Below, one piece after another: positions 66-28,905 of a DNA stretch of 31,427 nucleotides. Positions within the stretch are counted from its first letter, which is position 1. Each line of letters opens with the position of its first letter. The translations under genes and the position numbers were made by a program. The notes beneath the pieces were generated by a model that saw nothing but the letters and a program-made list of their open reading frames with translations, was not told the DNA's origin and ran no database searches. Source of the DNA: a virus (taxonomy: Duplodnaviria > Heunggongvirae > Uroviricota > Caudoviricetes); the IMG/VR virus record IMGVR_UViG_3300005805_000054, positions 1-31,427 of that record. One strand, given 5' to 3'.

Positions 66-364
66 TGATAAACTGGTTACGAACAAAATTACATAACTTT
101 ATATTCCCACAAGATACTAATGAATTAGTTGAAACTAAAACTGATAGAGCCTCACGTGGTCTTATTAGCAGAGGATCACAACTTGATAGTAGAAATGGAA
201 TGAGTTTTACAATTCATCAAGCTAATGGTGGATATGTTATGGAGTATTCATCATATGATGAGAAAACTGACAGGAACAGTCACAATTTGCACATCATTAC
301 TAGTGAACAAGATTTAGGTCAAGGTATCGCACATATTATCACACTGGAACTTTTGCGTAAATGA
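65..364 (+). CDS. Hypothetical phage protein, 99 aa
   Basis: ORF track; start coupled to the upstream stop. Confidence 0.7.
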   Translation: MINWLRTKLHNFIFPQDTNELVETKTDRASRGLISRGSQLDSRNGMSFTIHQANGGYVMEYSSYDEKTDRNSHNLHIITSEQDLGQGIAHIITLELLRK

Positions 365-430
365 TAAATAAGAGTGTAGTTCACGGAACGGGAATTCCCA
401 ACTACTCTAATGCTATGGAGAGCAATCAGC
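363..430 (+). promoter_or_regulatory. GATAAATA motif plus conserved stem-loop leader, copy 1, upstream of the GIY-YIG-like gene
   Basis: gataaata-ag-agt-GTAGTT-cac-GGAA-cgggaa-TTCC-c-AACTAC-tct-aatgctatggagagcaatcagc-ATG; aligns with the copies at 9531-9600 and 10849-10915. Confidence 0.8.
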
Positions 431-1042
431 ATGATTATTTATTCAAAATTAAATCCACCGACGGGTTTCTATGTATACGCATATCTAAGAGAAAACGGCA
501 CGCCTTACTATATTGGAAAGGGGTCTAATCAACGTGCTTGGCGGAAAAGAAAATGCGAAATTCGTCCTCCAAAAAACAAAGATAGAATTATGATATTAGA
601 ATCAAACTTAACAGACATTGGTGCATTGGCGCTTGAGCGTAGAATGATACGATGGTGGGGACGGAAAGATTTAAGTACCGGAATATTGCACAATAGAACT
701 GATGGCGGAGACGGAGCATCAGGGCAGATTCAGTCAATTGAAACTAGGATTAAACGAAGTCAAACAATGTTGAATCGGGTGCGTACATTAGAACATAGCC
801 TAAACATAAGTTTAGGTAAAAAAGGAATCCCTCAATCAGTTGAATCTAATTTGAAACGCAGTATAACCCAAAAAGGTCAAAAAAGAGACCCGAAAGCTAC
901 TCTTAAAATGAGTATTAGTCAAACTGGTAAAAACAAATCACCACATATAAGACTAACATGCCCCTATTGTTTAAAAGAAGGTGGTGCATCAGGGATGAAA
1001 CATTATCATTTTGAAAAGTGTAAATTTAAGGAAAATAAATGA
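431..1042 (+). CDS. Free-standing GIY-YIG-like homing endonuclease with C-terminal CCHC finger
   Basis: FYVYAYLR...PYYIGKG...R motif, NUMOD3-like QSxE.(R/N).KRS repeats and CPYC-x12-H-x3-C tail. Start placed at 431 by alignment of the leader. Confidence 0.8.
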
Positions 1043-1968
1043 AGAATACATTATGGGTTGAGGCCTACAGACCACAAACAATAGCAGACTATGTGTTTGT
1101 AGACGAACATCAAAAACAACAAGTAGAGAACTGGGTCAAAGAAGGTTCTATCCCTCACTTGTTATTCAGTGGTGAACCAGGCACAGGTAAGACTACTCTT
1201 GCTAAAGTATTGATTCACGAACTGGGTGTAGAAGAATATGATGTAATGGAAATCAATGCGTCACGTGAACGTGGTATTGATATCATGCGTGACCGTGTTA
1301 ACAGTTTCGCACAGACGATGCCTTTCGGTAAGTTTAAAGTCGTATTACTAGATGAAGCGGATTACGCAACACCCGACTTTCAAGCGGCATTGCGTGGTGA
1401 TATGGAAACATACCATGAGACTGTACGTTTCATTTTAACTTGTAACTATCCGCATAAGATTATCCCTGCATTGCGTGAGAGTCGTTGTCACAAATTTCAT
1501 ATTGCTAAGCCAGATATGACAGAGTTCACCGCAAGAGCCGCTACAGTATTGGTGTCTGAAGGTGTAGAATTTGATTTAGATGTATTAGATAACTATGTAC
1601 GTGGGTGCTATCCTGACTTGCGTAAGATGTTGAATCAATTGCAAGTTAACAGTATTGATGGTAAACTACGGCAGGTTGATAAGAATGATACCACTGAAGA
1701 TGCATTACTAATTGAAGCAACACAGTTGTTTAAAGCAGGTAAAGTATTAGAAGCAAGACAGCAACTAATGCAGTATATTGCTCTATATCCTACACGCATT
1801 GAAGATTGTTATCGTTGGGCATATGATAATGTTGATCTTTGGGGAAAATCACATGCTCAGAAAGATGCTGCCATCATTGTAATTCGTAATGGTCTAGCAA
1901 ATCTGCCACTAGTTGGTATACAGGAGATATCTTTGGCAGCTACACTTGCAGAGTTGACGGCCTTATAA
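1039..1968 (+). CDS. Clamp loader AAA+ subunit (T4 gp44/RFC-small-like)
   Basis: W.E.YRP N-terminus, Walker [10 protein letters not shown], Walker B LLDEAD, SRC motif. Confidence 0.92.
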
Positions 1969-2007
1969 TAAGCCAGTTCTTAAATTTATCATTCAAGGAG
2001 ATATATT

Positions 2008-2280
2008 ATCCGTTATTTATTAATTACTTTTGTACGTAAGCCCGGTGGACAAATTGATGAGTTAGTTGCTGTAGGTAAAAGAATTAAGCCTGCAGATTTA
2101 CAAACATGCAATGTAATTATTGACTATGCCGCTAAAAAAGTTCAAAAATGTGTAATCGAGGGCAAAGTTGTTGACACTGACTTTGAACGCATGGATGCAT
2201 ACTATAAACAAGTATATCCTAATCTAATTGCACAATTAGAAAAAGAAGCAACTATCACACAAAACGAAAAAGGGGCTTAA
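2008..2280 (+). CDS. Probable 90-aa protein with a non-canonical (ATC) start, absent from the ORF track
   Basis: AAGGAG at 1995-2000, then ATC CGT TAT TTA..., open to TAA at 2278-2280 (IRYLLITFVRKPGGQIDE...EKGA*). Confidence 0.6.
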   Translation: MRYLLITFVRKPGGQIDELVAVGKRIKPADLQTCNVIIDYAAKKVQKCVIEGKVVDTDFERMDAYYKQVYPNLIAQLEKEATITQNEKGA

Positions 2281-2290
2281 GCCCCTTTTT
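2267..2290. terminator. Bidirectional intrinsic terminator
   Basis: Perfect palindrome AAAAAGGGGCTTAAGCCCCTTTTT between convergent genes. Confidence 0.85.
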
Positions 2291-2291
2291 C

Positions 2292-3077
2292 TTATGAATA
2301 CATCTTGAGGATGTGTTCGATAATTTTGTGACGTTGTATGTCACGCATATCAAACTTGCAAGACGCTAAACCTGGAATCACCCCCTTTCCACTATCTAGC
2401 TTACTTAGTAAGTCTAGGAGCCCATTCTCAGGCGTGCGTCTATCTGTCTGTTCTACATCACCAGTGATGACAATCTTGCTACCGATACCGATACGTGTCA
2501 TAATCATTTTTAACTGGCTTGGGGTGGCATTTTGAGCCTCATCAAGTACAACCCAACTGTTCTTAAAATTGCGACCTCTACAGAACGCTAGTGGAGCTAT
2601 CTCTACTATTTGTTCTTCTAGCATATCGGCAATTTCTTTAGTTGAGTAATACTCCCGTAATACATCTAACAATGGTCTAGTCCAGGGTTCCATCTTTTGA
2701 TTGATATCTCCTGGTAAAAACCCGTGCTTTTCGTCATCAACACCTACTGCGGGTCTGGATAGAATGATCCTATCACAGTCTCCGTTTCTCATTGCTTTGA
2801 TAGCGGCTTGCATAGCAAGATACGTTTTCCCTGTCCCTGCAGGTCCCGAAACCACGACTATATCTGTCTTATCATCAAGTAATGAAAGTATGTATTTTTC
2901 TTGATTAATGGATTTGGGGATGAGTTCTACGGGTTTGCGTACTCTTTGCTTCTGAGTTGCTTGTGTGAAGTCGATTGTTTTTGATTCTTTCGTATAGAAT
3001 GTATTACCATCTGTCTTTTTACTGTGTGAAAATCGTGTGTCTGTTGTACGTAATGCGCTAGTTTTTCGTTTGCTCAA
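2292..3077 (-). CDS. phoH: PhoH-family ATPase
   Basis: GPAGTGKT, RPAV, GFLPG, RGRNF, LDEAQN, TRIG and GDVEQTD motifs. Probable TTG start at 3077 behind AAAGGAG. Confidence 0.93.
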   Translation of the reverse strand: MSKRKTSALRTTDTRFSHSKKTDGNTFYTKESKTIDFTQATQKQRVRKPVELIPKSINQEKYILSLLDDKTDIVVVSGPAGTGKTYLAMQAAIKAMRNGDCDRIILSRPAVGVDDEKHGFLPGDINQKMEPWTRPLLDVLREYYSTKEIADMLEEQIVEIAPLAFCRGRNFKNSWVVLDEAQNATPSQLKMIMTRIGIGSKIVITGDVEQTDRRTPENGLLDLLSKLDSGKGVIPGLASCKFDMRDIQRHKIIEHILKMYS

Positions 3078-3253
3078 GTTAGTTCTCCTTTGTAGAGCGA
3101 AAGTTTTTGAGTTCTCATAACACTCATCTTTATTTAAGGTCAATTGTTGTACATATAGTAGCATACTTTTAACACAAATATAAATGATAAATATTAGGCT
3201 AACTCCTTGTTATTTCAAAAGTTGTATTCATTCAATAAAAGATAAATACTACT

Positions 3254-3865
3254 ATGATTAAAACCGCCGATAAATTCTTTGACGATGTTGATTACGTCAG
3301 CATTATTAGCACTGTAAAGGGCATCTTTACAAGTGATGGATCTATGGCCGTTCTATTAGATTACGAACGAGTCCTAGATGAGGCAGACCTGTATGCATTC
3401 CGTAATTGGGAATTGGGTGAGTTAGTTCAAGGGCCTGTTGTAAAACGCTATAGTGTAGGTTGCATGTTTATGTGGCCATACAAACTAATGCCTGACCCAA
3501 GAGCCGCAAAACGCTTAATACATTTAGGTTGCTCTATCAAGTGGAAAAAGACTAAGATTCGTGTTCCCGTTGAAGTAGATGATTATGATGACTTTGACCC
3601 CGGAACACGCTATCCAAAGATGAAAGAAAAACCTATTTGGCTAGTCTATATTGAGATGCCTAAAGAAATCATGGACGATATCCGTGAAGGTTCTATTGAC
3701 TTAGCAGGACAGAACATTGACTTGAACGACTTAGATGACGCATATGATGACGATATGGATTCAGAAGATAGCGATGGTACTGAAGATGGCGGTCAGAATG
3801 AACAACAAGAACCAGGCATGGCCGGCAATATCGGTGGCATGGATCAAACACAACCGGCAATATAA
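3254..3865 (+). CDS. Hypothetical protein with acidic C-terminal tail
   Basis: ORF track; GATAAATA at 3241-3248 immediately upstream. Confidence 0.75.
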   Translation: MIKTADKFFDDVDYVSIISTVKGIFTSDGSMAVLLDYERVLDEADLYAFRNWELGELVQGPVVKRYSVGCMFMWPYKLMPDPRAAKRLIHLGCSIKWKKTKIRVPVEVDDYDDFDPGTRYPKMKEKPIWLVYIEMPKEIMDDIREGSIDLAGQNIDLNDLDDAYDDDMDSEDSDGTEDGGQNEQQEPGMAGNIGGMDQTQPAI

Positions 3866-3867
3866 TT

Positions 3868-4419
3868 ATGAGTAAAATACTTAAGGAAGGCTTAGACTAT
3901 CACGACCTAGAAGGTATTGTTACTCCTAGAGTAACTATAGATGAGTATGCCGCACAGATGGGCAAAGATAGCGAAATCGTTACACTAGCTTTTATTGTTA
4001 AAAACAAACAAGCAGGTGAAGATTTAAGTGATTGGTTCGAACGTGGATATGATTTCGTATTAGATGCACAAGTCAGTGACGGTGAATTAACTTTAGGTAC
4101 ATACTTGGTGTTTGTTGAGATGAATCGTAGAACTACAGTACCTGAAAGAATTATTACACTATTAGATGACTTAGAAACATTAACTGATATTCCATTAAAA
4201 GACTGGACAGTTGTAGTTGATGATGAAGAATATGAACCGGCCGCTGAGGTGTTGGAACAAGTTATTACAATTTCACCTCATCAATACCGTGAGGAAGTTG
4301 AGCCTGATGAAGAAGAATTAAATGAAATGCGTGAACGTGCTGGATTAGACGTTAAGGTGCTTCATGCTGACAAACAAGATGCTGATATTAAAGCATTTAA
4401 AGCAATGGCAGGACTATAA
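3868..4419 (+). CDS. Hypothetical acidic protein
   Basis: ORF track; tightly packed in an operon. Confidence 0.75.
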   Translation: MSKILKEGLDYHDLEGIVTPRVTIDEYAAQMGKDSEIVTLAFIVKNKQAGEDLSDWFERGYDFVLDAQVSDGELTLGTYLVFVEMNRRTTVPERIITLLDDLETLTDIPLKDWTVVVDDEEYEPAAEVLEQVITISPHQYREEVEPDEEELNEMRERAGLDVKVLHADKQDADIKAFKAMAGL

Positions 4420-4422
4420 GAT

Positions 4423-5031
4423 ATGGCAACAATATTACCTAAGAAGGCTGGCTACGAACAGCCCATGGCACTAGATGACGAACATCATGACGCATTGGCA
4501 TCAGACCCAACAATACAACAATTCCCTCAAGGCAGCAGTTATGGTACAAACACATCATTTAGCGGGGCTCCAGCATTTGGCGCACCTTCGTCAGGAGGCT
4601 TCGGTTCATCCGGTTCGTTTGGTTCATCAGGATCGTTCTCAAGCCCAAGCTTCAATCAACAATCAAGTTCAGGGTTTGGAAGTACACAAAACATTAACCA
4701 ATCAACTGGAAGTCAACCAGTTCTCACAGGTGCCGCACCTACAAATGCTGCCAGTGGAGCAGATGTACTAGTAGCTAACGACAATACAGATTGGATCAAT
4801 AAAAAATGGCGTCCAGTTATGGGTTGGATCTATATGCTAACTTGTACTATGGACTTTGTTGTGTTTCCGATACTATGGTCATTGTTACAAGCAATGAGTA
4901 AAGGTAGTGTTACAATGCAATGGCAACCATTGACGTTACAAGGTGCTGGTCTTTATCACATCGCTATGGGTGCTGTTCTTGGTATTGCTGCATATGGTCG
5001 TACAAAAGAAAAGATTGAGGGTAAATCTTAA
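4423..5031 (+). CDS. Membrane protein with Gly/Ser-rich N-terminus; resembles 3TM holin-like proteins
   Basis: Hydrophobic segments WRPVMGWIYMLTCTMDFVVFPILW and GAGLYHIAMGAVLGIAAYGRT. Confidence 0.5.
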   Translation: MATILPKKAGYEQPMALDDEHHDALASDPTIQQFPQGSSYGTNTSFSGAPAFGAPSSGGFGSSGSFGSSGSFSSPSFNQQSSSGFGSTQNINQSTGSQPVLTGAAPTNAASGADVLVANDNTDWINKKWRPVMGWIYMLTCTMDFVVFPILWSLLQAMSKGSVTMQWQPLTLQGAGLYHIAMGAVLGIAAYGRTKEKIEGKS

Positions 5032-5032
5032 T

Positions 5033-5061
5033 TTGACTACTAACACATAAGGTGTTATACT
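5033..5061 (+). promoter_or_regulatory. Sigma70-type promoter for dnaJ
   Basis: TTGACT-17 bp-TATACT; ATG 6 nt after the -10 box, no Shine-Dalgarno. Confidence 0.7.
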
Positions 5062-5067
5062 ATTCAG

Positions 5068-5874
5068 ATGGATCATTATCAAACGTTGGGTGTAGCTAAA
5101 AATGCTACTCCTGACGAAATCAAAAAATCATATAGAAAACTAGCAAGTCAGCATCATCCTGATAAGGGCGGAGACACTGCTACGTTCCAAAAGCTTGAAG
5201 AAGCATATCGCATTCTTTCAGATCCAACTCAACGACAACAATATGATAGACCCGTGCCACAAGGTAATCCCTTTGCAGGATTTCAACAAGCACCGGGTGG
5301 GTTCAACTTTAACTTCAATGGTGATATAAATGATTTGTTTGGGCAGATGTTTAATCAACACAATCAACGCCAAGCAAATCAACCGCATGCCTTTAGAACA
5401 TCTATCAACATTACATTAGAACAAAGTTATACCGGTGGCTCACAGCCATTAAGATTGCAAACACCAAATGGTACACACGCAGTCAATATTGAAATACCCA
5501 AAAGCGTAACTGATGGTGGACAAATGCGTTATGAGAATCTTATACCCAACGCAAGTTTGATTGTAGAATTTAGAGTGGCACCTCACTTGAAGTTTGAGCG
5601 TAGAGGAATGGACTTATATTGTAACCAACAGATATCTGTGTTGGATTTGATTGTGGGTCAAGAATTTGAATTCACTACTATTTCGGGTAAAACATTAATG
5701 GTAAGAGTCCCTCCTAAAACACAACCATATATGCATCTTAAAATAGCAGGAGAAGGTATGCCCATTCCAAATTCTAGTATATTTGGAGACCAAATACTAT
5801 TGCTTAAACCATTCGTTCCTGCTACAATAGATGACGATATAACACAAAGTATTTTGCGTTCCAAATCAGAATAA
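5068..5874 (+). CDS. dnaJ: J-domain co-chaperone (DnaJ class B/CbpA-like)
   Basis: DHYQTLGV...HPDKGGD J-domain, G/F-rich linker, DnaJ C-terminal domain, no Cys-rich region. Confidence 0.9.
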   Translation: MDHYQTLGVAKNATPDEIKKSYRKLASQHHPDKGGDTATFQKLEEAYRILSDPTQRQQYDRPVPQGNPFAGFQQAPGGFNFNFNGDINDLFGQMFNQHNQRQANQPHAFRTSINITLEQSYTGGSQPLRLQTPNGTHAVNIEIPKSVTDGGQMRYENLIPNASLIVEFRVAPHLKFERRGMDLYCNQQISVLDLIVGQEFEFTTISGKTLMVRVPPKTQPYMHLKIAGEGMPIPNSSIFGDQILLLKPFVPATIDDDITQSILRSKSE

Positions 5875-5895
5875 ATATTTTTACAAAAGGAAACT

Positions 5896-8169
5896 ATGAC
5901 AAATTCACCAGAAATTGAAAGCATTATTGAACAAGCCATTGTTTATGCTAAAGAGCGCAAACACCAGTATTGCACAGTAGAACATCTATTACTTGCATTG
6001 GTTACGCATACTCCATTTAAGAAATGCTTAGACAGTTTTGGTGCCGATGCCGACTTGTTAATTCAAGAGGTAGGCGCATACTTAGATAGTCTACATGCTA
6101 TTGAAGCTAAAGGATTAACAGTAGAAGAAGTTCAACCTCGTAAAACAAACAGCCTTGAACGAACAATGAATCGTTCAGTAACACAAGTATTGTTTACTGG
6201 TCGTAGACAAGTTACAACTATTGACTTGTATCTTTCTATTGCAAGCGAAGGTAACAGTCACGCACATTACTTCCTGTTGAAGTACGGTGTCAATAAACAA
6301 GAGTTTGTCAATCACTGGCAAAAGACTTACAAGGGTGCTGAATTCACCACTAAGTTGAATGATGCACAAGCAGACGAAATCCTTGAAGAATACACAACCA
6401 ACTTAAGTGACTTGGCACGTCAAGGTAAACTAGAACCATTGATCGGTCGTACTAAAGAACTTGACGATATCATTAATGTTCTTGCTAAACGATTCAAAGC
6501 AAACGTATTGATGGTAGGTGATCCGGGTGTCGGTAAGACTGCAATTGCAGAGGGTCTTGCACAAATGATTGCTTTAGGTGATTGCCCTGAATTTATTCTT
6601 AACCATGATGTATATTCACTTGAAGTAGGTGCATTGCTTGCTGGTAGCAAGTATCGTGGTGACTTTGAAGAAAAGGTTAAACAAGTGTTAGAAGCACTAA
6701 ACACTAAGAAGAAAGCTGTTCTATTCATTGACGAAGCACACACTATGAGTGGTAGTGGTAACGGCAATGGTGGTAGTGTTGACTTTGCTAATATGATTAA
6801 GCCTGCGATTACTAAAGGTACATTGAAAGTTATCGCTAGTACTACTTGGGAAGAGTACTATGAGTCGTTTGAGAAGGATCGTGCTTTAATGCGTAGATTC
6901 TATCGTGTATCTATTGATGAACCAAATAAAGAAACAACTATTCGTATTCTGACTGGATTAAGTCAACGACTAAGCGACTTCCATAATGTAATGATTAACG
7001 AAGAAGCTATTACAGCCGCAGTAGAATCAGCCGATCGTTATATTCACGATAGAAAGAATCCAGACAAAAGTATTGACTTGCTTGATGCGGCTTGTGCTAA
7101 ACAACGAGTTGCAGACAACAAGGGAGCAGAAATTACTAAAGACTTGATCTTTGAACAAGTTGAAAGATTCACTGGAGTTCCTGCTGATAAACTCAACGGT
7201 GATAACATGGAACGCATTCAAACACTTGAAGTAAATGTCAAGAGTAAACTGTATGGTCAAGATGAAACAGTTGATAAGGTACTTGAACGCATCTATGTTA
7301 GTTTTGCGGGTATCGGTAGTGAGAGTAAACCTACAGCAAGTTTCTTGTTCTTAGGTCCAACAGGTACAGGTAAAACAGAATTGGCTAAGTTGTTGAGTAA
7401 GAACCTTGACATGCCATTGCTCAAGTATGATATGTCAGAATATAGCGAGAAGCATTCTGTATCAAGTTTGATTGGTCCTCCCCCCGGTTATGTTGGCTTT
7501 GGTGATAGTCAAGTCGGCGGTGGACGATTAGTTAATGACTTGAGCAAGAACCCACACAGTATCTTGTTGTTTGACGAAGTTGAGAAAGCACACCCTGATA
7601 TCTTTAACATCTTCTTGCAGATGTTAGATGAAGGTCGTATCACTGGTAGTAATGGTAAAGAAGTTAACTGTAAGAATTGTGTTATCATTCTAACTAGTAA
7701 CTTGGGCAGTGCTGATAGCGAACGAAACAATATCGGCTTTGGATCACAAGAGAAGATCGGCGAAGATGATAAGGCACTGAAGGAATTCTTTAAGCCAGAA
7801 TTTAGAAATCGTTTAGATTTAGTGTGTAAATTCAACAAACTTGATATGCTTGCAATTAAGAAGATTGTTGTTAAATTCTCCGATGAGTTGAAGAAACAAT
7901 TGATAGACAAGCACAATATTACATTGAACTTATCAGAACCTGTAGTTGAGTACTTAGCAGAACAGGGTTATGATAAGAAGATGGGTGCTAGACCGTTGGC
8001 CCGCAAGATTGACGAATTGATTCGTGTCCCTCTCAGTAAGAAAATCTTATTTGAGCGAATCAAAAACGCAACAGTGACCGCGGTAATGGGCGATGAGGGA
8101 ATTGACTATACAGTTGCTCAAAAAGCAACAGCAAAAGTTGGCGAAAATGGGATTATTGAAATTAGCTGA
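5896..8169 (+). CDS. clpA: ClpA-like Hsp100 AAA+ ATPase
   Basis: Clp N-domain (EHLLLAL), two Walker A motifs (GDPGVGKT, GPTGTGKT), FIDEAH and LFDEVEKAH, IGF ClpP-docking loop. Confidence 0.93.
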   Translation: MTNSPEIESIIEQAIVYAKERKHQYCTVEHLLLALVTHTPFKKCLDSFGADADLLIQEVGAYLDSLHAIEAKGLTVEEVQPRKTNSLERTMNRSVTQVLFTGRRQVTTIDLYLSIASEGNSHAHYFLLKYGVNKQEFVNHWQKTYKGAEFTTKLNDAQADEILEEYTTNLSDLARQGKLEPLIGRTKELDDIINVLAKRFKANVLMVGDPGVGKTAIAEGLAQMIALGDCPEFILNHDVYSLEVGALLAGSKYRGDFEEKVKQVLEALNTKKKAVLFIDEAHTMSGSGNGNGGSVDFANMIKPAITKGTLKVIASTTWEEYYESFEKDRALMRRFYRVSIDEPNKETTIRILTGLSQRLSDFHNVMINEEAITAAVESADRYIHDRKNPDKSIDLLDAACAKQRVADNKGAEITKDLIFEQVERFTGVPADKLNGDNMERIQTLEVNVKSKLYGQDETVDKVLERIYVSFAGIGSESKPTASFLFLGPTGTGKTELAKLLSKNLDMPLLKYDMSEYSEKHSVSSLIGPPPGYVGFGDSQVGGGRLVNDLSKNPHSILLFDEVEKAHPDIFNIFLQMLDEGRITGSNGKEVNCKNCVIILTSNLGSADSERNNIGFGSQEKIGEDDKALKEFFKPEFRNRLDLVCKFNKLDMLAIKKIVVKFSDELKKQLIDKHNITLNLSEPVVEYLAEQGYDKKMGARPLARKIDELIRVPLSKKILFERIKNATVTAVMGDEGIDYTVAQKATAKVGENGIIEIS

Positions 8170-8869
8170 TGACAATCCCGATATTGATTTTTATGATTAT
8201 CGGGACCAACATTACTATAACAAATACGAATACCGAGCTAGATTTGTTCTAGTGGGTGTTCGTTACACATGGTATATCAAAGATGATATCCAAGAACTAA
8301 TTGATAGATTAGATGCACCTGCAGTAGGATATAATCGTGTCGTAAATGACCGTGACAAAGTGCGTGGAAATTTACAGATATTAGCGTCATTTCTTAAGTG
8401 GCGCAATGAACTGAAAAAGAAGAAAAATTCTTCAATTAGAATTGAGCACAATACTGTAGGTGTATTCAGTAATGATTTGCAAGAGTTAAAAGACATTGTA
8501 AATTGTATTCCGGGTATTGAAGTAGACTACACTCAAGCACAAATTTCTAACTTTATCGGTATTAAACACTTTGTAAACAAACCTAAACATAAATTTAGAG
8601 TTTATTTAAAATCTAAGCGGGTTGAAAGTTCCTTTGCAGAAGAATTAGATTCATTATTTAAGAAGAACGAAAAATTATATCCATGTGACTCACTTAAAAT
8701 TTGGGTCAAAGGTAGCGTCGGCCAGCAAAATAGTTGGAGATTTCGATTCAGTAATGCCAATCACTTTATTGACTACGATGATGAAAGCACACTAAGCTAT
8801 CTAGCATTACTGTATGGAGATATGCTTGGAAAACGCTATAAATTAGAAAAACGCCCTGATCCTATCTAG
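8147..8869 (+). CDS. Hypothetical protein
   Basis: ORF track (8093); ATG at 8147 is the more likely start. Confidence 0.65.
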   Translation: MGLLKLADDNPDIDFYDYRDQHYYNKYEYRARFVLVGVRYTWYIKDDIQELIDRLDAPAVGYNRVVNDRDKVRGNLQILASFLKWRNELKKKKNSSIRIEHNTVGVFSNDLQELKDIVNCIPGIEVDYTQAQISNFIGIKHFVNKPKHKFRVYLKSKRVESSFAEELDSLFKKNEKLYPCDSLKIWVKGSVGQQNSWRFRFSNANHFIDYDDESTLSYLALLYGDMLGKRYKLEKRPDPI

Positions 8870-9530
8870 TCGGCTTCTTTTTACACTTATCACCATGTTC
8901 TCTACCAAACGTAGGTTTTCCTACTTCTTTTTTACAAAATACACAAGAAACTTTTATATTATGCGGGCTATTCGCACCCTTCAAATTATGAGTCCCATTT
9001 TTTGATCGTTCTATTGCCCTTTTTCTTGCGGCTTCTTTGTCTAAAAAATGATGAGTTCCTTTAGCTAATAATCTGTTAGCAGTTTCTCTTTGTATGCTTC
9101 CGCCAGTAAACGCATTTTTACCTTCTTTGGTTTGTTTGTACACTGGATTATTTTCACCAATAAAATGATGGGTACCATCAACTATTCTTTTTAAATTTTT
9201 TTCTCTTGCTAAGTCACTATTCTGCCAGTTATGTGTACCTTGCTCTGATCTTGCTAATGCACTTTTTCTGGCCAAATTAGAAAATTCTTCACCTGTCATG
9301 AATAATCTTTTTTGAGCAACCATAAGACCGCATGCTCCAAAGTCACCCCGTGAATAATGGATATCATAGTGTTCTTTAATGGTTACCGCCTTTAAATTCA
9401 ACGGATCATTATTACTATGATTACCGTCAATATGGTGAATTTCGTAACTACGGCCTTCGTCATCTTTAGGGATTGGACCATAATATTGTTCATAAATCTT
9501 ACGATGGTTGGGTTTATTATAAATAGTCAT
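8862..9530 (-). CDS. Free-standing HNH homing endonuclease with C-terminal CCHC finger
   Basis: YEIHHIDGNHSNNDPLNL...EHYDIH HNH motif; CVFC-x12-H-x3-C tail. Confidence 0.85.
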   Translation of the reverse strand: MTIYNKPNHRKIYEQYYGPIPKDDEGRSYEIHHIDGNHSNNDPLNLKAVTIKEHYDIHYSRGDFGACGLMVAQKRLFMTGEEFSNLARKSALARSEQGTHNWQNSDLAREKNLKRIVDGTHHFIGENNPVYKQTKEGKNAFTGGSIQRETANRLLAKGTHHFLDKEAARKRAIERSKNGTHNLKGANSPHNIKVSCVFCKKEVGKPTFGREHGDKCKKKPTR

Positions 9531-9600
9531 GCTGATTGCTCCTTGTTAGCATTAGAGAGGGTGGGTATTACTAGTACCGCGACTCTCACTTTTATTTATC
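9531..9600 (-). promoter_or_regulatory. GATAAATA motif plus conserved stem-loop leader, copy 2
   Basis: Reverse complement reads gataaata-aa-agt-GAGAGT-cgc-GGTA-ctagtaa-TACC-c-ACCCTC-tct-aatgctaacaaggagcaatcagc-ATG. Confidence 0.8.
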
Positions 9601-9634
9601 TAATTTGATAAATAGTATAATATAAGAGGTTAAT

Positions 9635-9802
9635 ATGGCTGCAATTAAAGAAACAACATTCATTATTAAATTAAGTGAATTAGTTAAAGAAAATTCTAAC
9701 ACGAGTAATAGCTCAGAATTTGATACTCTACCTAAAACAATAGAAGAAATAGTACAGGAGTTAGTTCCTAAACATGTAGTTGTTGAGGTTGTAAAAGCAT
9801 GA
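9635..9802 (+). CDS. Small hypothetical protein, 55 aa (below the ORF-track cutoff)
   Basis: AGAGGT Shine-Dalgarno, MAAIKETTFIIKLSELVK...VEVVKA*, stop overlaps the next start (ATGA), GATAAATA at 9607-9614. Confidence 0.7.
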   Translation: MAAIKETTFIIKLSELVKENSNTSNSSEFDTLPKTIEEIVQELVPKHVVVEVVKA

Positions 9803-10188
9803 GCCAAACAACAACATTAGTATTGTTGCCACAAACAACATGGAACGGTAATGTTTCCAACGTACAGATATATGATGTTGTTGGTTTAAAGAACCCAGCC
9901 GCTTCATACTATGTTGGTAGCAAAGACTTACAAACCATCAACGTTAATCAAGTTGGATTGACTGGCAACATAATCGTCCAAGCAACATTAGCAACACTTC
10001 CTGAAACCACTGATTGGTTTCAAGTTTATAAACTAGAAGCTAATGCAGGCGCGCCAGCAAACACTACACCTAATTTTAATTCTTCCATCAACGAAGCTGT
10101 TAATATTGAAGGAAACTTTGTATGGATGAGAGCTATAATACAAGACTTCAATGGTGGCATATTACAATACGTTAAGCTATCGTATTAA
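9799..10188 (+). CDS. Hypothetical beta-rich protein, possibly virion-associated
   Basis: ORF track; N/T/V/G-rich composition. Confidence 0.65.
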   Translation: MSQTTTLVLLPQTTWNGNVSNVQIYDVVGLKNPAASYYVGSKDLQTINVNQVGLTGNIIVQATLATLPETTDWFQVYKLEANAGAPANTTPNFNSSINEAVNIEGNFVWMRAIIQDFNGGILQYVKLSY

Positions 10189-10848
10189 TTTACAATTTTG
10201 TCCATGCCATCTAGCATAAGTTCCGGGATTTGCTAATTTACCGCAATGTTCGCACTTATGGTTGCTTGCATGGATTTTTCTATATTTGTCAGTTAACTCT
10301 GCTGATCTGTTAGAATGAAACTCACTTGCGGCTAATCGCTTTTCTACTGGTACAAATTGACCCTTATTTGCCTCTCGTATCTTATCAGTTGAGTTTGATG
10401 AATGTTTTTTGCCGGTCATTCCTGATGTTTTCCCACGTTTTACAATAGCATTATCATATATTTTTCTTACATTTGGATCATGCATAGGATTATTATTTTT
10501 CATCCTTATGGAATGTGTTTTTGAAAATTGTTCTCTTAATGAAGAATATTGTCTAGCATTTAATTTTTTTCTTGTTTGGTTATTATTTTCTAAGTTAGCC
10601 ATAGACCAAGCGGCACTAATCATTTTTGATTTGAATTTGCCCTCTGTCATTCTAACTAATAAAAGATGACAAATTAAATGCTCCCTACCAGTTAACCACA
10701 CTAAATTGTCAACAGAATTGGTTCCACCTAAACTTTTGGGTATAATATGATGTCGTTCTTTATATACTTCTTTGGGTAAAATTCTATTTCTAGAGTTATC
10801 TATTATACGATAATAGATGGAAGTATACTTGTTGTTGATAAATATCAT
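10177..10848 (-). CDS. Free-standing HNH homing endonuclease with NUMOD3-like motif and C-terminal CCHC finger
   Basis: ERHHIIPKSLGGTNSVDNLVWLTGREHLICH; GMTGKKHSSNSTDKIREAN; CEHC-x12-H-x3-C tail. Confidence 0.85.
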   Translation of the reverse strand: MIFINNKYTSIYYRIIDNSRNRILPKEVYKERHHIIPKSLGGTNSVDNLVWLTGREHLICHLLLVRMTEGKFKSKMISAAWSMANLENNNQTRKKLNARQYSSLREQFSKTHSIRMKNNNPMHDPNVRKIYDNAIVKRGKTSGMTGKKHSSNSTDKIREANKGQFVPVEKRLAASEFHSNRSAELTDKYRKIHASNHKCEHCGKLANPGTYARWHGQNCKLIR

Positions 10849-10915
10849 TGCTGATGCTCCTATACAGTGTTAGAGTGAGTGGGGATTGCAGTCCCGCGAC
10901 TCACACTTATTTATC
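10849..10915 (-). promoter_or_regulatory. GATAAATA motif plus conserved stem-loop leader, copy 3
   Basis: Reverse complement reads gataaata-agt-GTGAGT-cgc-GGGA-ctgcaa-TCCC-c-ACTCAC-tct-aacactgtataggagcatcagca-ATG. Confidence 0.8.
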
Positions 10916-10934
10916 AAATTTTACTAAATACTAT

Positions 10935-12452
10935 ATGAGTAAACAAATTGTAATTATTCCGGGGGGCTTCCATCCCTACCACGCAGGCCATTATGCTTTA
11001 TATCAGTCAGCCCGCAAAGCATTCCCTGATGCTGATTTATATGTTGCGGCAACAAACAGTCAAGAGACACGACCTTTTCCTTTTGCAGTAAAAGAAAAAC
11101 TAGCAAAAGTTGCTGGCGTTGCTCCTGGTCATTTTGTTCAAGTTAAGAGTCCTTTCCAAGCTAAAGAGATTACACAAAACTATGATCCAGAACAAGATAT
11201 ATTGATTTTTGTTCGTAGTGAGAAGGATCGCAATGAAAGTCCTAAGCCAGGTGGCATGAAGAAAGATGGTACACCTGCTTACTTCCAACCATATACTGGT
11301 AAAGACATGCAACCTTTTGCTAAACATGCATACTTTGCTTATCTACCAACAGTTGAGTTTGGTCCTGGTATTACAAGTGCGACAGAGATTCGCAATGCAT
11401 GGCCTAAGTTAGATGACCGTCGCAAGACAGCAATGGTTATGAGTTTGTATCCAGCGACACAAAAGAATCCTAAACTTGCCGCTAATGTTGTTAAGATGTT
11501 AGATATTGGTATGGGTGGACAAGAAAATGTGGCGAAGGACAATTTGGCAGAAGAACAAGTTACCGAATTGGATGTTAGCAAAACATTGAAATTTGCCACT
11601 AAGGCGCACAAAGGACAACAATACGGGGAGAAGCCATATATTACTCATCCAAGATCAGTTGCTGCCACAGGTAAGAAATTTTTTGGCGCAGCATTTACAC
11701 CAGATGCTATTAAAGTGGCATTACTACATGATGTCGTAGAAGATACTCCTTATAAGTTAAATCAGTTATCCAAGATGGGGTACACTCCGGAAGTTGTAGA
11801 AGCTGTACAATTGTTAACGAAGAATAAAGCATTGAGTTATGCAGACAACATCAAGGCAATTATTGCTAGTGATAATAAACTAGCAATGATGGTCAAGTAT
11901 GCCGACAACTATCAAAACTTTACAGGTGATAAGTCGTCTTGGGATCCTGAAAGAGTAGCACATAGTCAAAAGAAATATCTAGCAAGTTTAGATATGCTAG
12001 GAGACAAGTTAGGTATTAAACAACATCTAAGCCAACCTAAACAGCAAGGTGTGGCGGAAGGCAAACAAATTTGGGACGGTACAGATTGGGGACCACAAGG
12101 TAACTTTGCAGGTGACACTCCAGTTAATCTCGGTGGGCAACCAGTTAATAAACTTCAAGTCGGTGACATTGTAACTTACTTTGGACAAAAAGCAAGAATA
12201 GAGGCTATGTCTAAAACTGGTAATACTTCTCGCATCACTATTGCAAACAAAATGGGCGGCATTACCCAAGATGTACTCACACGTGATTTAAAACGTACAG
12301 GTATGTCAGAAGAAATTGGCAGAGCAGGTGGTGGTTTTGGCACAAACTATCCAGGCACTTACGAAGAAGAAAACGGCCCGTTTACCCATAAGGGCGGATT
12401 AAAACTTACATCTCTTACTACAGAGAGCGTAGATTACTTAGACGAAAAATAA
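10935..12452 (+). CDS. Multi-module protein: HIGH-type cytidylyltransferase-like domain, RelA/SpoT-type HD hydrolase domain and small C-terminal modules
   Basis: PGGFHPYHAGH; AHKGQQYGEKPYITHP..VA...ALLHDVVEDT...KYADN; QGVAEG repeat at 12045. Likely start 10935 after CTAAATA. Confidence 0.8.
   Translation: MSKQIVIIPGGFHPYHAGHYALYQSARKAFPDADLYVAATNSQETRPFPFAVKEKLAKVAGVAPGHFVQVKSPFQAKEITQNYDPEQDILIFVRSEKDRNESPKPGGMKKDGTPAYFQPYTGKDMQPFAKHAYFAYLPTVEFGPGITSATEIRNAWPKLDDRRKTAMVMSLYPATQKNPKLAANVVKMLDIGMGGQENVAKDNLAEEQVTELDVSKTLKFATKAHKGQQYGEKPYITHPRSVAATGKKFFGAAFTPDAIKVALLHDVVEDTPYKLNQLSKMGYTPEVVEAVQLLTKNKALSYADNIKAIIASDNKLAMMVKYADNYQNFTGDKSSWDPERVAHSQKKYLASLDMLGDKLGIKQHLSQPKQQGVAEGKQIWDGTDWGPQGNFAGDTPVNLGGQPVNKLQVGDIVTYFGQKARIEAMSKTGNTSRITIANKMGGITQDVLTRDLKRTGMSEEIGRAGGGFGTNYPGTYEEENGPFTHKGGLKLTSLTTESVDYLDEK
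12045..12062 (+). repeat. Outlying copy of the QGVAEG repeat
   Basis: CAAGGTGTGGCGGAAGGC, identical to the array consensus. Confidence 0.9.
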
Positions 12453-28195: not shown

Positions 28196-28905
28196 AGTTT
28201 ATGTATTGAAATAGAACATTTAGTTCGTTTAGTTCTGTTTGCTTGCTTCGGTAACAATTCTAAATTAGCATAATGTCCTATTACTTCAGGAGGAATCCCT
28301 TGGATAAATCCTTCAGTTTTACTAAACTTATGATCTAGTTCATACAAGTCTCCTCGTATGAGATTGTTTGGATTGATTAGATTATGATGATGCTTCTAGC
28401 TTAAATTAGTATAGTTAGTGACTTGTTCCTGATATAATTCCCATTGAGACTTTGATTCTTTTGGGATTGCTAATCCTAGCTTAATTTTAGTGTCAGATGC
28501 TTGTTTATATGACTCTGGATTTCTTTTTCTGGCCTTTTCTGTTTGCAACTTTTTAGCTAAATCAGTATGAGATTTATTGAACATTGGATTGTTATTACCG
28601 TAATGTCCGCCGCGCTCTTTTACTTTTTTAGATATCTTTTCCCCTTTAGCTCTAACCCACTCAGAATCAGCATGTAGTTCCTTCAATTTTTTATTACCAG
28701 ACTCACTCATTTTTTTCATATGTTTTATACGGTCTTCCGCAGTGGTGCGTTGTTTTCTACTATTTTCTGCTTTTTCAATAAAACCGGAACATTGAGTAAT
28801 TTTCTCAGTACAACGGGTAATCTTAGTATTAACACTTATCCAATTAGCTTGCTTACCGCAATAAAAACATATATCATTACGTGTGGGGTTGAATATTTTA
28901 GGCAT
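28135..28905 (-). pseudogene. HNH endonuclease gene (N-terminal Cys motif, NUMOD3-like motif, C-terminal HNH) interrupted by one in-frame TAG
   Basis: ORFs 28396-28905 and 28135-28347 share a frame: ...YTNLS*KHHHNLINPNNLIRGDLYELDHKFS...NLELLPKQANRTK. Confidence 0.75.

Follow-up and report, generated by a model that had tools for sequence, protein, structure and literature searches.

A portable ~90-bp control module ahead of homing endonuclease genes in lake jumbo phages, with hairpins that are probably selected on the antisense strand

Big phage genomes devote much of their length to free-standing homing endonuclease genes. How a phage tolerates these has been worked out for no more than a handful of T4 cases, in each of which the gene has a sense-strand hairpin of its own. 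The stretch of phage DNA discussed here (the window: 31,427 nucleotides (nt), positions 1 to 31,427 of IMG/VR virus record IMGVR_UViG_3300005805_000054) contains three endonuclease genes of unlike catalytic type that start behind what looks like one and the same stem-loop leader. What is this leader, with what does it travel, and on which strand is it meant to fold? The short answer is that it is a real, widespread module of about 90 bases in lake jumbo phages, that it is the terminal part of a mobile nuclease cassette, and that its conserved hairpins are probably built for an RNA from the strand opposite the nuclease gene. The window is the first part of a 95,427-bp record that was detected in lake-water runs and has an estimated completeness of 28%; the clamp loader of the record is 50% identical to its counterparts in PA5oct-like jumbo Pseudomonas phages.

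The features that carry the argument are given below in window coordinates, with the three copies of the module numbered by position.

363-370, plus strand: box GATAAATA of copy 1, late-promoter-like, a motif enriched upstream of genes; its complement would supply the distal portion of the U-rich tail in the predicted antisense RNA
376-405, strand-neutral: two-tier hairpin of copy 1, supported by covariation (outer stem 376-381/400-405, CAC bulge, inner stem 385-388/395-398, loop 389-394)
405-433, plus strand: invariant CTCTAA linker, Shine-Dalgarno (SD) hairpin, CAGC and ATG (431-433) of copy 1
412-414 and 421-423, plus strand: arms GCT and AGC of the SD hairpin of copy 1, with GGAG at 417-420
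436-442, minus strand: inverted ATAAATA box of copy 1, within nuclease codons 2-4, predicted antisense promoter
about 430 down to 363, minus strand: predicted antisense RNA of copy 1
431-1042, plus strand: GIY-YIG-like homing endonuclease gene, 203 amino acids, assigned by a family profile against GIY-YIG chains in the PDB
8862-9530, minus strand: HNH_3 homing endonuclease gene, 222 amino acids
9516-9608, minus strand: whole module of copy 2 (box 9600-9593, hairpin 9587-9557, SD hairpin 9550-9538, ATG 9530-9528, TATTTAT 9525-9519)
9519-9525, plus strand: candidate antisense box of copy 2, with the predicted RNA at about 9531-9600
10177-10848, minus strand: HNH (phrog_655) homing endonuclease gene, 223 amino acids
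10835-10923, minus strand: whole module of copy 3 (box 10915-10908, hairpin 10904-10875, ATG 10848-10846, TATTTAT 10844-10838)
10838-10844, plus strand: candidate antisense box of copy 3, whose TATTTAT is read in another frame (M-I-F-I)

The initial annotation had located a shared leader at these three genes, and both its position and its described anatomy are confirmed. The distance from the GATAAATA box to the ATG is 68 nt for the gene at 431, 70 nt for that at 9530 and 67 nt for that at 10848, and the stems, bulge, loops, CTCTAA, CAGCA(A)TG and the mismatch of copy 2 match in all three copies. From copy 1 to copy 3 the outer stems are GTAGTT/AACTAC, GAGAGT/ACCCTC (with one A.C mismatch) and GTGAGT/ACTCAC, followed by a CRC bulge, inner stems GGAA/TTCC, GGTA/TACC and GGGA/TCCC, and loops of 6-7 nt; after the hairpin come CTCTAA, then the SD, and then CAGCA(A)TG. 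The invariant single-stranded parts of the module are CTCTAA, CAGC, the ATG region and TATTTAT. Three things had been missed: a third covarying helix surrounds the SD, the conservation extends beyond the ATG into TATTTAT, which is the reverse complement of the box, and the same contig holds three further copies.

In the window, the anchor pattern GATAAATA-N0-4-AGTG occurs three times where 0.07 occurrences are expected. A covariance model finds six full-length copies in the 95-kb record (E-values of 1e-17 to 1e-22) and no further match up to E = 1; the minus strand carries the additional ones, at 46327-46419, 82720-82820 and 94336-94426. In IMG/VR, an exact-pattern scan gives at least 118 loci. 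Unbiased covariance-model scans of five whole records (contigs of 180-349 kb) give 4, 13, 1, 8 and 1 copies. The family comprises at least 146 distinct sequences from uncultured lake-phage contigs. In a bacterial collection of 185,579 species genomes there are only three true matches, all on contigs of 1.8-3 kb from metagenome-assembled genomes, and these contigs are probably mis-binned phage. Among GenBank phages, two of the leaders have no blastn match, and a megablast search with 12 kb gave nothing useful. The leader had not been recognised as a named family, which agrees with Rfam 15: no family matches anywhere in the window at the gathering score, and at E<=1 the sole match for five copy-bearing loci is an unrelated Histone3, located elsewhere. 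A tRNA scan found nothing.

What the module precedes can be read from 131 unique downstream open reading frames (ORFs), mostly of 150-300 amino acids, tallied by family and not per ORF. Pfam finds NUMOD3 (22), HNH_3 (18), HNH (7), GIY-YIG (5) and I-TevI or I-HmuI DNA-binding domains; one helix-turn-helix domain aside, there are only nuclease or homing-endonuclease-associated domains or domains of unknown function. PHROGs assigns the ORFs to the homing-endonuclease families 314 (66), 655 (26) and 12324 (20) and to various HNH families, and the annotated families shown are homing or HNH endonucleases throughout. By clustering, there is one large Seg-like GIY-YIG group, one group with two HNH types, and several small GIY-YIG variants, while short ORFs behind intact modules are nuclease genes decayed by frameshifts or internal deletions. 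As far as such domain assignments reach, the downstream ORF is a homing endonuclease (GIY-YIG-like or one of two HNH types) wherever Pfam or PHROGs recognise it. Copies 2 and 4 are ~93% identical by our own count, despite preceding an HNH_3 gene and a GIY-YIG gene, respectively. The gene at 431 has no Pfam match, and its family profile (20 members) matches GIY-YIG chains in the PDB at E 0.002 over residues 11-40. Invariant in this family are Y14/Y16, Y27-I28-G29, R35, E69 and N88, so that GIY and YIG motifs are accompanied by the catalytic Arg, Glu and Asn; judged from its sequence, the gene is a GIY-YIG nuclease. The fourth endonuclease-like gene of the window (28396-28905, minus strand) had been noted as lacking the leader, and it indeed has no covariance-model match.

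It is worth noting that the three nucleases at 431-1042, 8862-9530 and 10177-10848, with their unlike catalytic domains, have a similar C-terminal CxxC...H..C zinc-finger-like motif, and that several of these nucleases also share NUMOD3 repeats; this would mean that DNA-binding tails are shuffled, as the leaders are. A further arrangement is found at L039:1828-2300, where a 21-codon MTIY mini-ORF comes after an intact module and precedes a second SD with ATG and an HNH gene. This looks like a module captured upstream of a pre-existing gene.

The limits of the mobile unit can be seen at empty sites. None of the 11 syntenic relatives (with the ClpB-like gene, g8093, g9799 and the next gene) has the two nuclease genes, and none has a model match. 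In the relative L149, the neighbouring proteins are 97-99% identical, and the sequence is the same up to window position 8868, where it continues with the next gene's own GATAAATA box; from this empty site, the cassette runs from 8869 to ~9603, that is, ORF and module only. The copy 3 nuclease and its module are likewise absent from 11/11 syntenic relatives, and a lake contig joins 10148 to 11010. Lake contigs also have the 83-nt module, and only this, in common with contigs to which they are otherwise unrelated. Taken with the tally of the 131 ORFs, this cassette boundary upholds the proposal that a portable module accompanies endonuclease genes of any catalytic domain. The upstream neighbour is divergent in 102 of 139 cassettes (73%), the cassette is antisense to both neighbours in 75 of 143 (52%), and within the record five of six copies lie on the minority strand.

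Two observations concern the sites of these cassettes. The small gene at 9635 is strongly diverged (window 9600-9700 against L149:4090-4200) despite the 97-99% identity of ClpB and g8093, which looks like a co-conversion tract or target-site divergence at the homing site. In addition, a contig from lake run X6 joins the hairpin of copy 2 (9564) to that of copy 3 (10881) and skips 1316 nt; module copies may truly have recombined and deleted what lay between them, or the join may be a repeat-driven assembly artefact.

The stem covariation seen in three copies holds in a larger alignment. The module has three strongly covarying helices: a 6-bp outer stem, a 4-bp inner stem, separated from it by the invariant CRC/C internal loop, and a 3-bp helix enclosing the SD. 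Among 106 non-redundant copies, 92% of cells are paired against 72.6% in shuffled alignments, and double-change cells number 297 against 71. The covariation score is 0.516 against 0.168, a value reached by 0 of 500 shuffles, with slid controls at 0.02-0.11.

The kind of mismatch bears on the choice of strand. Over 146 copies and 13 pairs, the sense strand has 1804 Watson-Crick cells, 8 G.U and 46 A.C, with seven of the eight G.U at the loosely aligned innermost pair. For the 12 firm pairs the counts are one G.U against 42 A.C, and among distinct helix variants 22 have A.C against one with G.U. An A.C on the sense strand is a G.U on the antisense strand, so that the pattern of a folded RNA, in which wobbles are tolerated and A.C is avoided, holds only for the antisense. 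Folding energies agree. In a comparison of minimum free energies over 140 copies, the antisense has -18.0 and the sense -13.5 kcal/mol, the antisense being better in 125 of the 140, and the shuffle z-scores are -2.0 and -1.0. Copy 2 has an antisense fold of -21.0 kcal/mol (z -2.4) and a sense fold of -11.5 kcal/mol (z -0.3), and the sense folds of the copies in the window have z-scores between -0.3 and -1.2. The hairpin had first been taken as a leader structure of the nuclease mRNA; both lines of evidence favour the opposite strand, and the original choice of strand was probably wrong.

A further line of evidence concerns the promoter-like boxes at the two ends of the module. Nearly all copies have a NATAAATA or CTAAATA box ahead of them. 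Of 26 ATAAATA sites outside modules, ~22 have a co-oriented gene starting no more than 130 nt downstream (the genome is 90% coding), and three large module-bearing relatives each encode a gp55-like late sigma factor. The box thus behaves like the T4 late promoter TATAAATA and is a putative promoter. At the other end, TATTTAT is constant at 4-5 nt past CAGCA whatever the phase of the ATG and the second codon (the proteins start with MTIY, MCIY, MNIY, MIFI or MYLD). ATT TAT is kept in 20 of 23 starts in which it is not forced by the search pattern, and in the rest of these nuclease genes Ile is encoded by ATT in 40% of cases and Tyr by TAT in 70%. On the other strand this reads as an inverted ATAAATA box over codons 2-5, which is invariant and does not depend on the reading frame. 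Its variants (ATAAATA, CTAAATA and TTAAATA) are those of the sense box, and its context, N3-ATG/G, resembles many other genes of the phage, which makes it a candidate outward promoter. Following the antisense strand from there, the SD and 5' untranslated region (UTR) are situated between the inverted box and the hairpin, and the hairpin is followed by a ACUUUUAUUUAU-type tail with at least 5 T in 8 nt in 121 of 127 copies. Geometry, covariation, wobble asymmetry and energy combine to predict an antisense RNA that folds stably and would be the complement of the translation initiation region.

The reading favoured here, at a probability of roughly one half, is that a cis-antisense RNA made from the module holds the nuclease in check, much as IS10 RNA-OUT does with its transposase. 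The module would be the ~90-bp control end of free-standing homing-endonuclease cassettes in lake jumbo phages that encode gp55 (T4-type late transcription), with two convergent late-promoter boxes ~80 bp apart. The sense box would drive the nuclease mRNA and the inverted box in codons 2-5 an antisense RNA of ~70-80 nt, which would begin at the complement of the start codon, carry the anti-SD in a small hairpin, and terminate at the large two-tier hairpin plus a U-rich tail that overlaps the sense promoter. Since such an RNA would be a perfect complement of the nuclease mRNA across its 5' UTR and SD, it would cause a translation block, cleavage, or both. The outcome would be that a potentially toxic nuclease is kept low, and convergent transcription may add interference. 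Being self-sufficient, the module could have been placed before unrelated nuclease genes by recombination, and with 73% of upstream neighbours divergent, a device that is independent of orientation would be needed. In short, the sequences show the family and its covariation, the strand asymmetry, the invariant inverted box, the cassette boundary and the association with nucleases, and from these we infer firing of both boxes, an RNA end at the U tract, and repression.

Several points weigh against this reading. The U-rich tail is partly forced as the complement of the sense box and is therefore no independent evidence, and the hairpin has an internal loop. A simple terminator scan does not call these hairpins. 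The A.C cases partly cluster in two stem lineages (the GAGAG and GAGGA types). The sense RNA, too, can fold, ~95% of its pairs being standard, and it may have a function of its own. The invariant CRC bulge, CTCTAA and CAGC are unexplained by simple antisense pairing; they suggest a protein partner. Finally, one cDNA run (X22) has only two 101-nt contigs in 3.1 kb, at 9513-9613 and 9584-9654 and at a depth of 3-4; both are unstranded, cover copy 2 and the divergent intergenic region, and overrun the predicted ends of the RNA. They may hint at abundant RNA over copy 2. One of the two contigs is a fold-back chimera at 9584-9613.

Two other ideas about the module were tried and rejected. The loop of the big hairpin might repeat or complement the ribosome site of its own gene, but cognate and non-cognate pairs score alike (3.38 vs 3.41; 3.20 vs 3.35). 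As for a small peptide on the antisense strand, an ATG from the palindromic CATG opens frames of varying length, which are broken by indels.

The folding of the sense RNA leads to the alternative that survives best, which is nonetheless unlikely: the module could be a 5' UTR element of the sense strand, in which the late transcript begins at the first base of the hairpin, the hairpin is a 5' stabiliser or a protein site, and the SD hairpin tunes translation. The T4 late-promoter spacing rule would put +1 at the G opening the outer stem, and if the rule holds in this phage, the start site suits such an element; so do the covarying hairpin around the SD and the ~95% of sense cells that still pair. 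However, a selected sense RNA should not show nearly no G.U together with 46 A.C mismatches, the sense folds of the window are no better than shuffles and weaker than the antisense in 125 of 140 copies, and the frame-independent TATTTAT would be left unexplained.

The orientation of the cassettes suggests another use for the same parts, which is rather improbable. The module may be an insulator or anti-polarity device that has no regulatory RNA, where hairpin and U tract halt transcription crossing the nuclease backwards and the inverted box restarts the next phage gene. Edgell et al. (2010; PMC2988022) discuss that invading endonuclease genes must fit the transcription of their host, a need that such a device would serve, and it would account for structure being selected on the strand that is co-directional with the neighbours to which the cassettes are antisense (73% for the upstream neighbour, 52% for both), as well as for the U-rich tail. 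But a promoter set right in front of a terminator would defeat its own purpose if the short RNA had no role, boxes of their own lie before the next genes (9607 and ~10930), and the module is the same in the 20-27% of cassettes that are co-oriented. The anti-SD hairpin also covaries, which is needless for a mere terminator.

The initial annotation had drawn an analogy with the masking of ribosome sites in T4. Here, AUAAAUA in read-through early transcripts would pair with UAUUUAU past the AUG, a three-way junction would hide the start, and late transcripts starting inside the box would escape. In almost all copies one 7-mer is the exact complement of the other, and the paradigm is documented for T4 e, I-TevI, segB and mobE (PMC3014915; PMC2988022). 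The analogy fits poorly, and this explanation is very unlikely. The flanks of the boxes pair at chance (65/119 against 65.3 expected; 35 against 34.8), so that a long-range helix of box and TATTTAT, tried as a candidate, was rejected for lack of flank covariation; CTAAATA variants of the box are uncompensated, and a 70-nt multiloop would be closed only weakly by seven A-U pairs. In addition, a divergent upstream neighbour (102 of 139 copies) means no sense read-through, and for those cassettes T4-style masking is inapplicable.

Scarcely credible is a DNA-level hairpin or cruciform for recombination, replication or cassette mobility, including the suggested DNA hairpin end: the near-absence of wobble pairs resembles a two-strand constraint and the copies act as dispersed repeats at contig breaks (a lake contig joins copy 2 to copy 3), but nothing favours a hairpin end in an element that is internal and closely tied to promoter boxes, SD and ATG, homing relies on flanking homology and not on an internal hairpin, and the mismatch asymmetry (22 variants vs 1) is unexpected for a cruciform, which extrudes both strands, an argument that does not cover a hairpin of one DNA strand.

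With the cis-antisense reading in mind, the module can be set beside known systems, and none of IS10/IS200, T4-type control, PeSL cassettes or CfrI is the same element. In IS10/Tn10, RNA-OUT acts on RNA-IN, and IS200 has art200 together with a 5'-UTR hairpin. RNAs of the RNA-OUT type are short, stable cis-antisense RNAs over the ribosome site, made from an outward promoter just inside the 5' end of the ORF. In mechanism these two come closest: as with IS10 RNA-OUT and IS200 art200, the DNA-cutting enzyme of a mobile element would be held down by a folded cis-antisense RNA, which is predicted here. In contrast to those systems, the host is a lytic jumbo phage, the gene encodes a homing endonuclease, and the promoters are late-looking and of T4 type; the terminator tail overlaps the sense promoter, and one module serves several nuclease families. 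There is no sequence or Rfam relationship, and the antisense RNA is here a predicted one.

T4-type control (I-TevI, I-TevII, I-TevIII, segB, Aeh1 mobE; PMC2988022, PMC3014915) comes closest in biology and is similar in that a late box lies directly upstream, RNA structure is found at the start, and the nuclease is restricted. A late-promoter-like box, a putative promoter, is indeed found immediately upstream of the endonuclease genes. In T4, each gene has its own local sense-strand hairpin, and the late promoter removes the 5' arm (PMC2988022, PMC3014915), whereas here one conserved 90-bp module is common to >140 genes, its helices are selected antisense, there is a second, inverted box, and most cassettes cannot receive sense read-through. 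The promoter does not form a 5' arm hiding SD and AUG, only the invariant 7-mers being complementary, and the structure is not selected on the sense strand.

The PeSL cassettes of T4-like phages (Arbiol 2010; Comeau 2014, PMC4122927) consist of a sigma-70 early promoter with a simple stem-loop and flank varied accessory genes. Closest in genome dynamics, they too are short repeated promoter and stem-loop motifs at indel boundaries, able to mediate modular shuffling. The present module differs in having late-type boxes and three covarying helices, in including the SD and first codons, and in preceding a homing endonuclease gene wherever the downstream ORF is recognisable. The combination of sigma-70 early promoter and stem-loop terminator is not found, the box being late-type and no sigma-70-like site being called within the module intervals (355-445, 9516-9608 and 10835-10923); the nearest such site, at 10838-10810 on the minus strand, begins within the nuclease ORF. 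A last relative in kind is CfrI of cyanophage S-PM2 (Millard et al. 2010, cited in PMC5931967). CfrI is described as a single-locus RNA linking psbA and F-CphI and, like the RNA predicted here, as a T4-like phage antisense RNA overlapping a free-standing homing endonuclease gene; by this description it is set apart by the fact that the present module is portable and common to many genes.

One covarying, antisense-selected module before >140 nuclease genes of unrelated catalytic families points to a general RNA brake that moves with the selfish gene. It may well be, and we put this forward tentatively, that a portable unit of promoter, small RNA and terminator laid over the nuclease promoter and start represents an abundant new class of cis-antisense RNAs encoded by phages, and that free-standing homing endonucleases have in it their first general brake that does not depend on the nuclease family, with the bulge and linkers docking an RNA-binding protein of phage or host. 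For Rfam the module is a new RNA family; in uncultured jumbo phages it can help to locate homing cassettes and late promoters, and it would offer a compact, testable case of convergent-promoter antisense control.

Some further features of the phage were seen along the way. Many ATAAATA boxes are separated by just 3-5 nt from the gene's ATG, as in GATAAATACTTAATG:

3241, plus strand: box 3-5 nt before an ATG, in the window
13577, plus strand: the same, in the window
28929, minus strand: the same, in the window
54833, minus strand: the same, elsewhere in the record
62046, 70341, 72314 and 74629, plus strand: the same, elsewhere in the record

If start sites follow those of T4 late transcripts, such late mRNAs would be leaderless or nearly so. 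At 31599-31650 of the record, a late box is directly followed by a perfect 12-bp hairpin (GTAAGCTAC...GTAGCTTAC) before a gene that is not a nuclease, and 5'-proximal hairpins behind late boxes may be more general in the phage. The phage also encodes a full-length ClpB/ClpA-like double AAA+ protein (757 amino acids; 5896-8169), PhoH (2292-3164, minus strand) and a cytidylyltransferase-like plus HD phosphohydrolase protein (~10954-12452).

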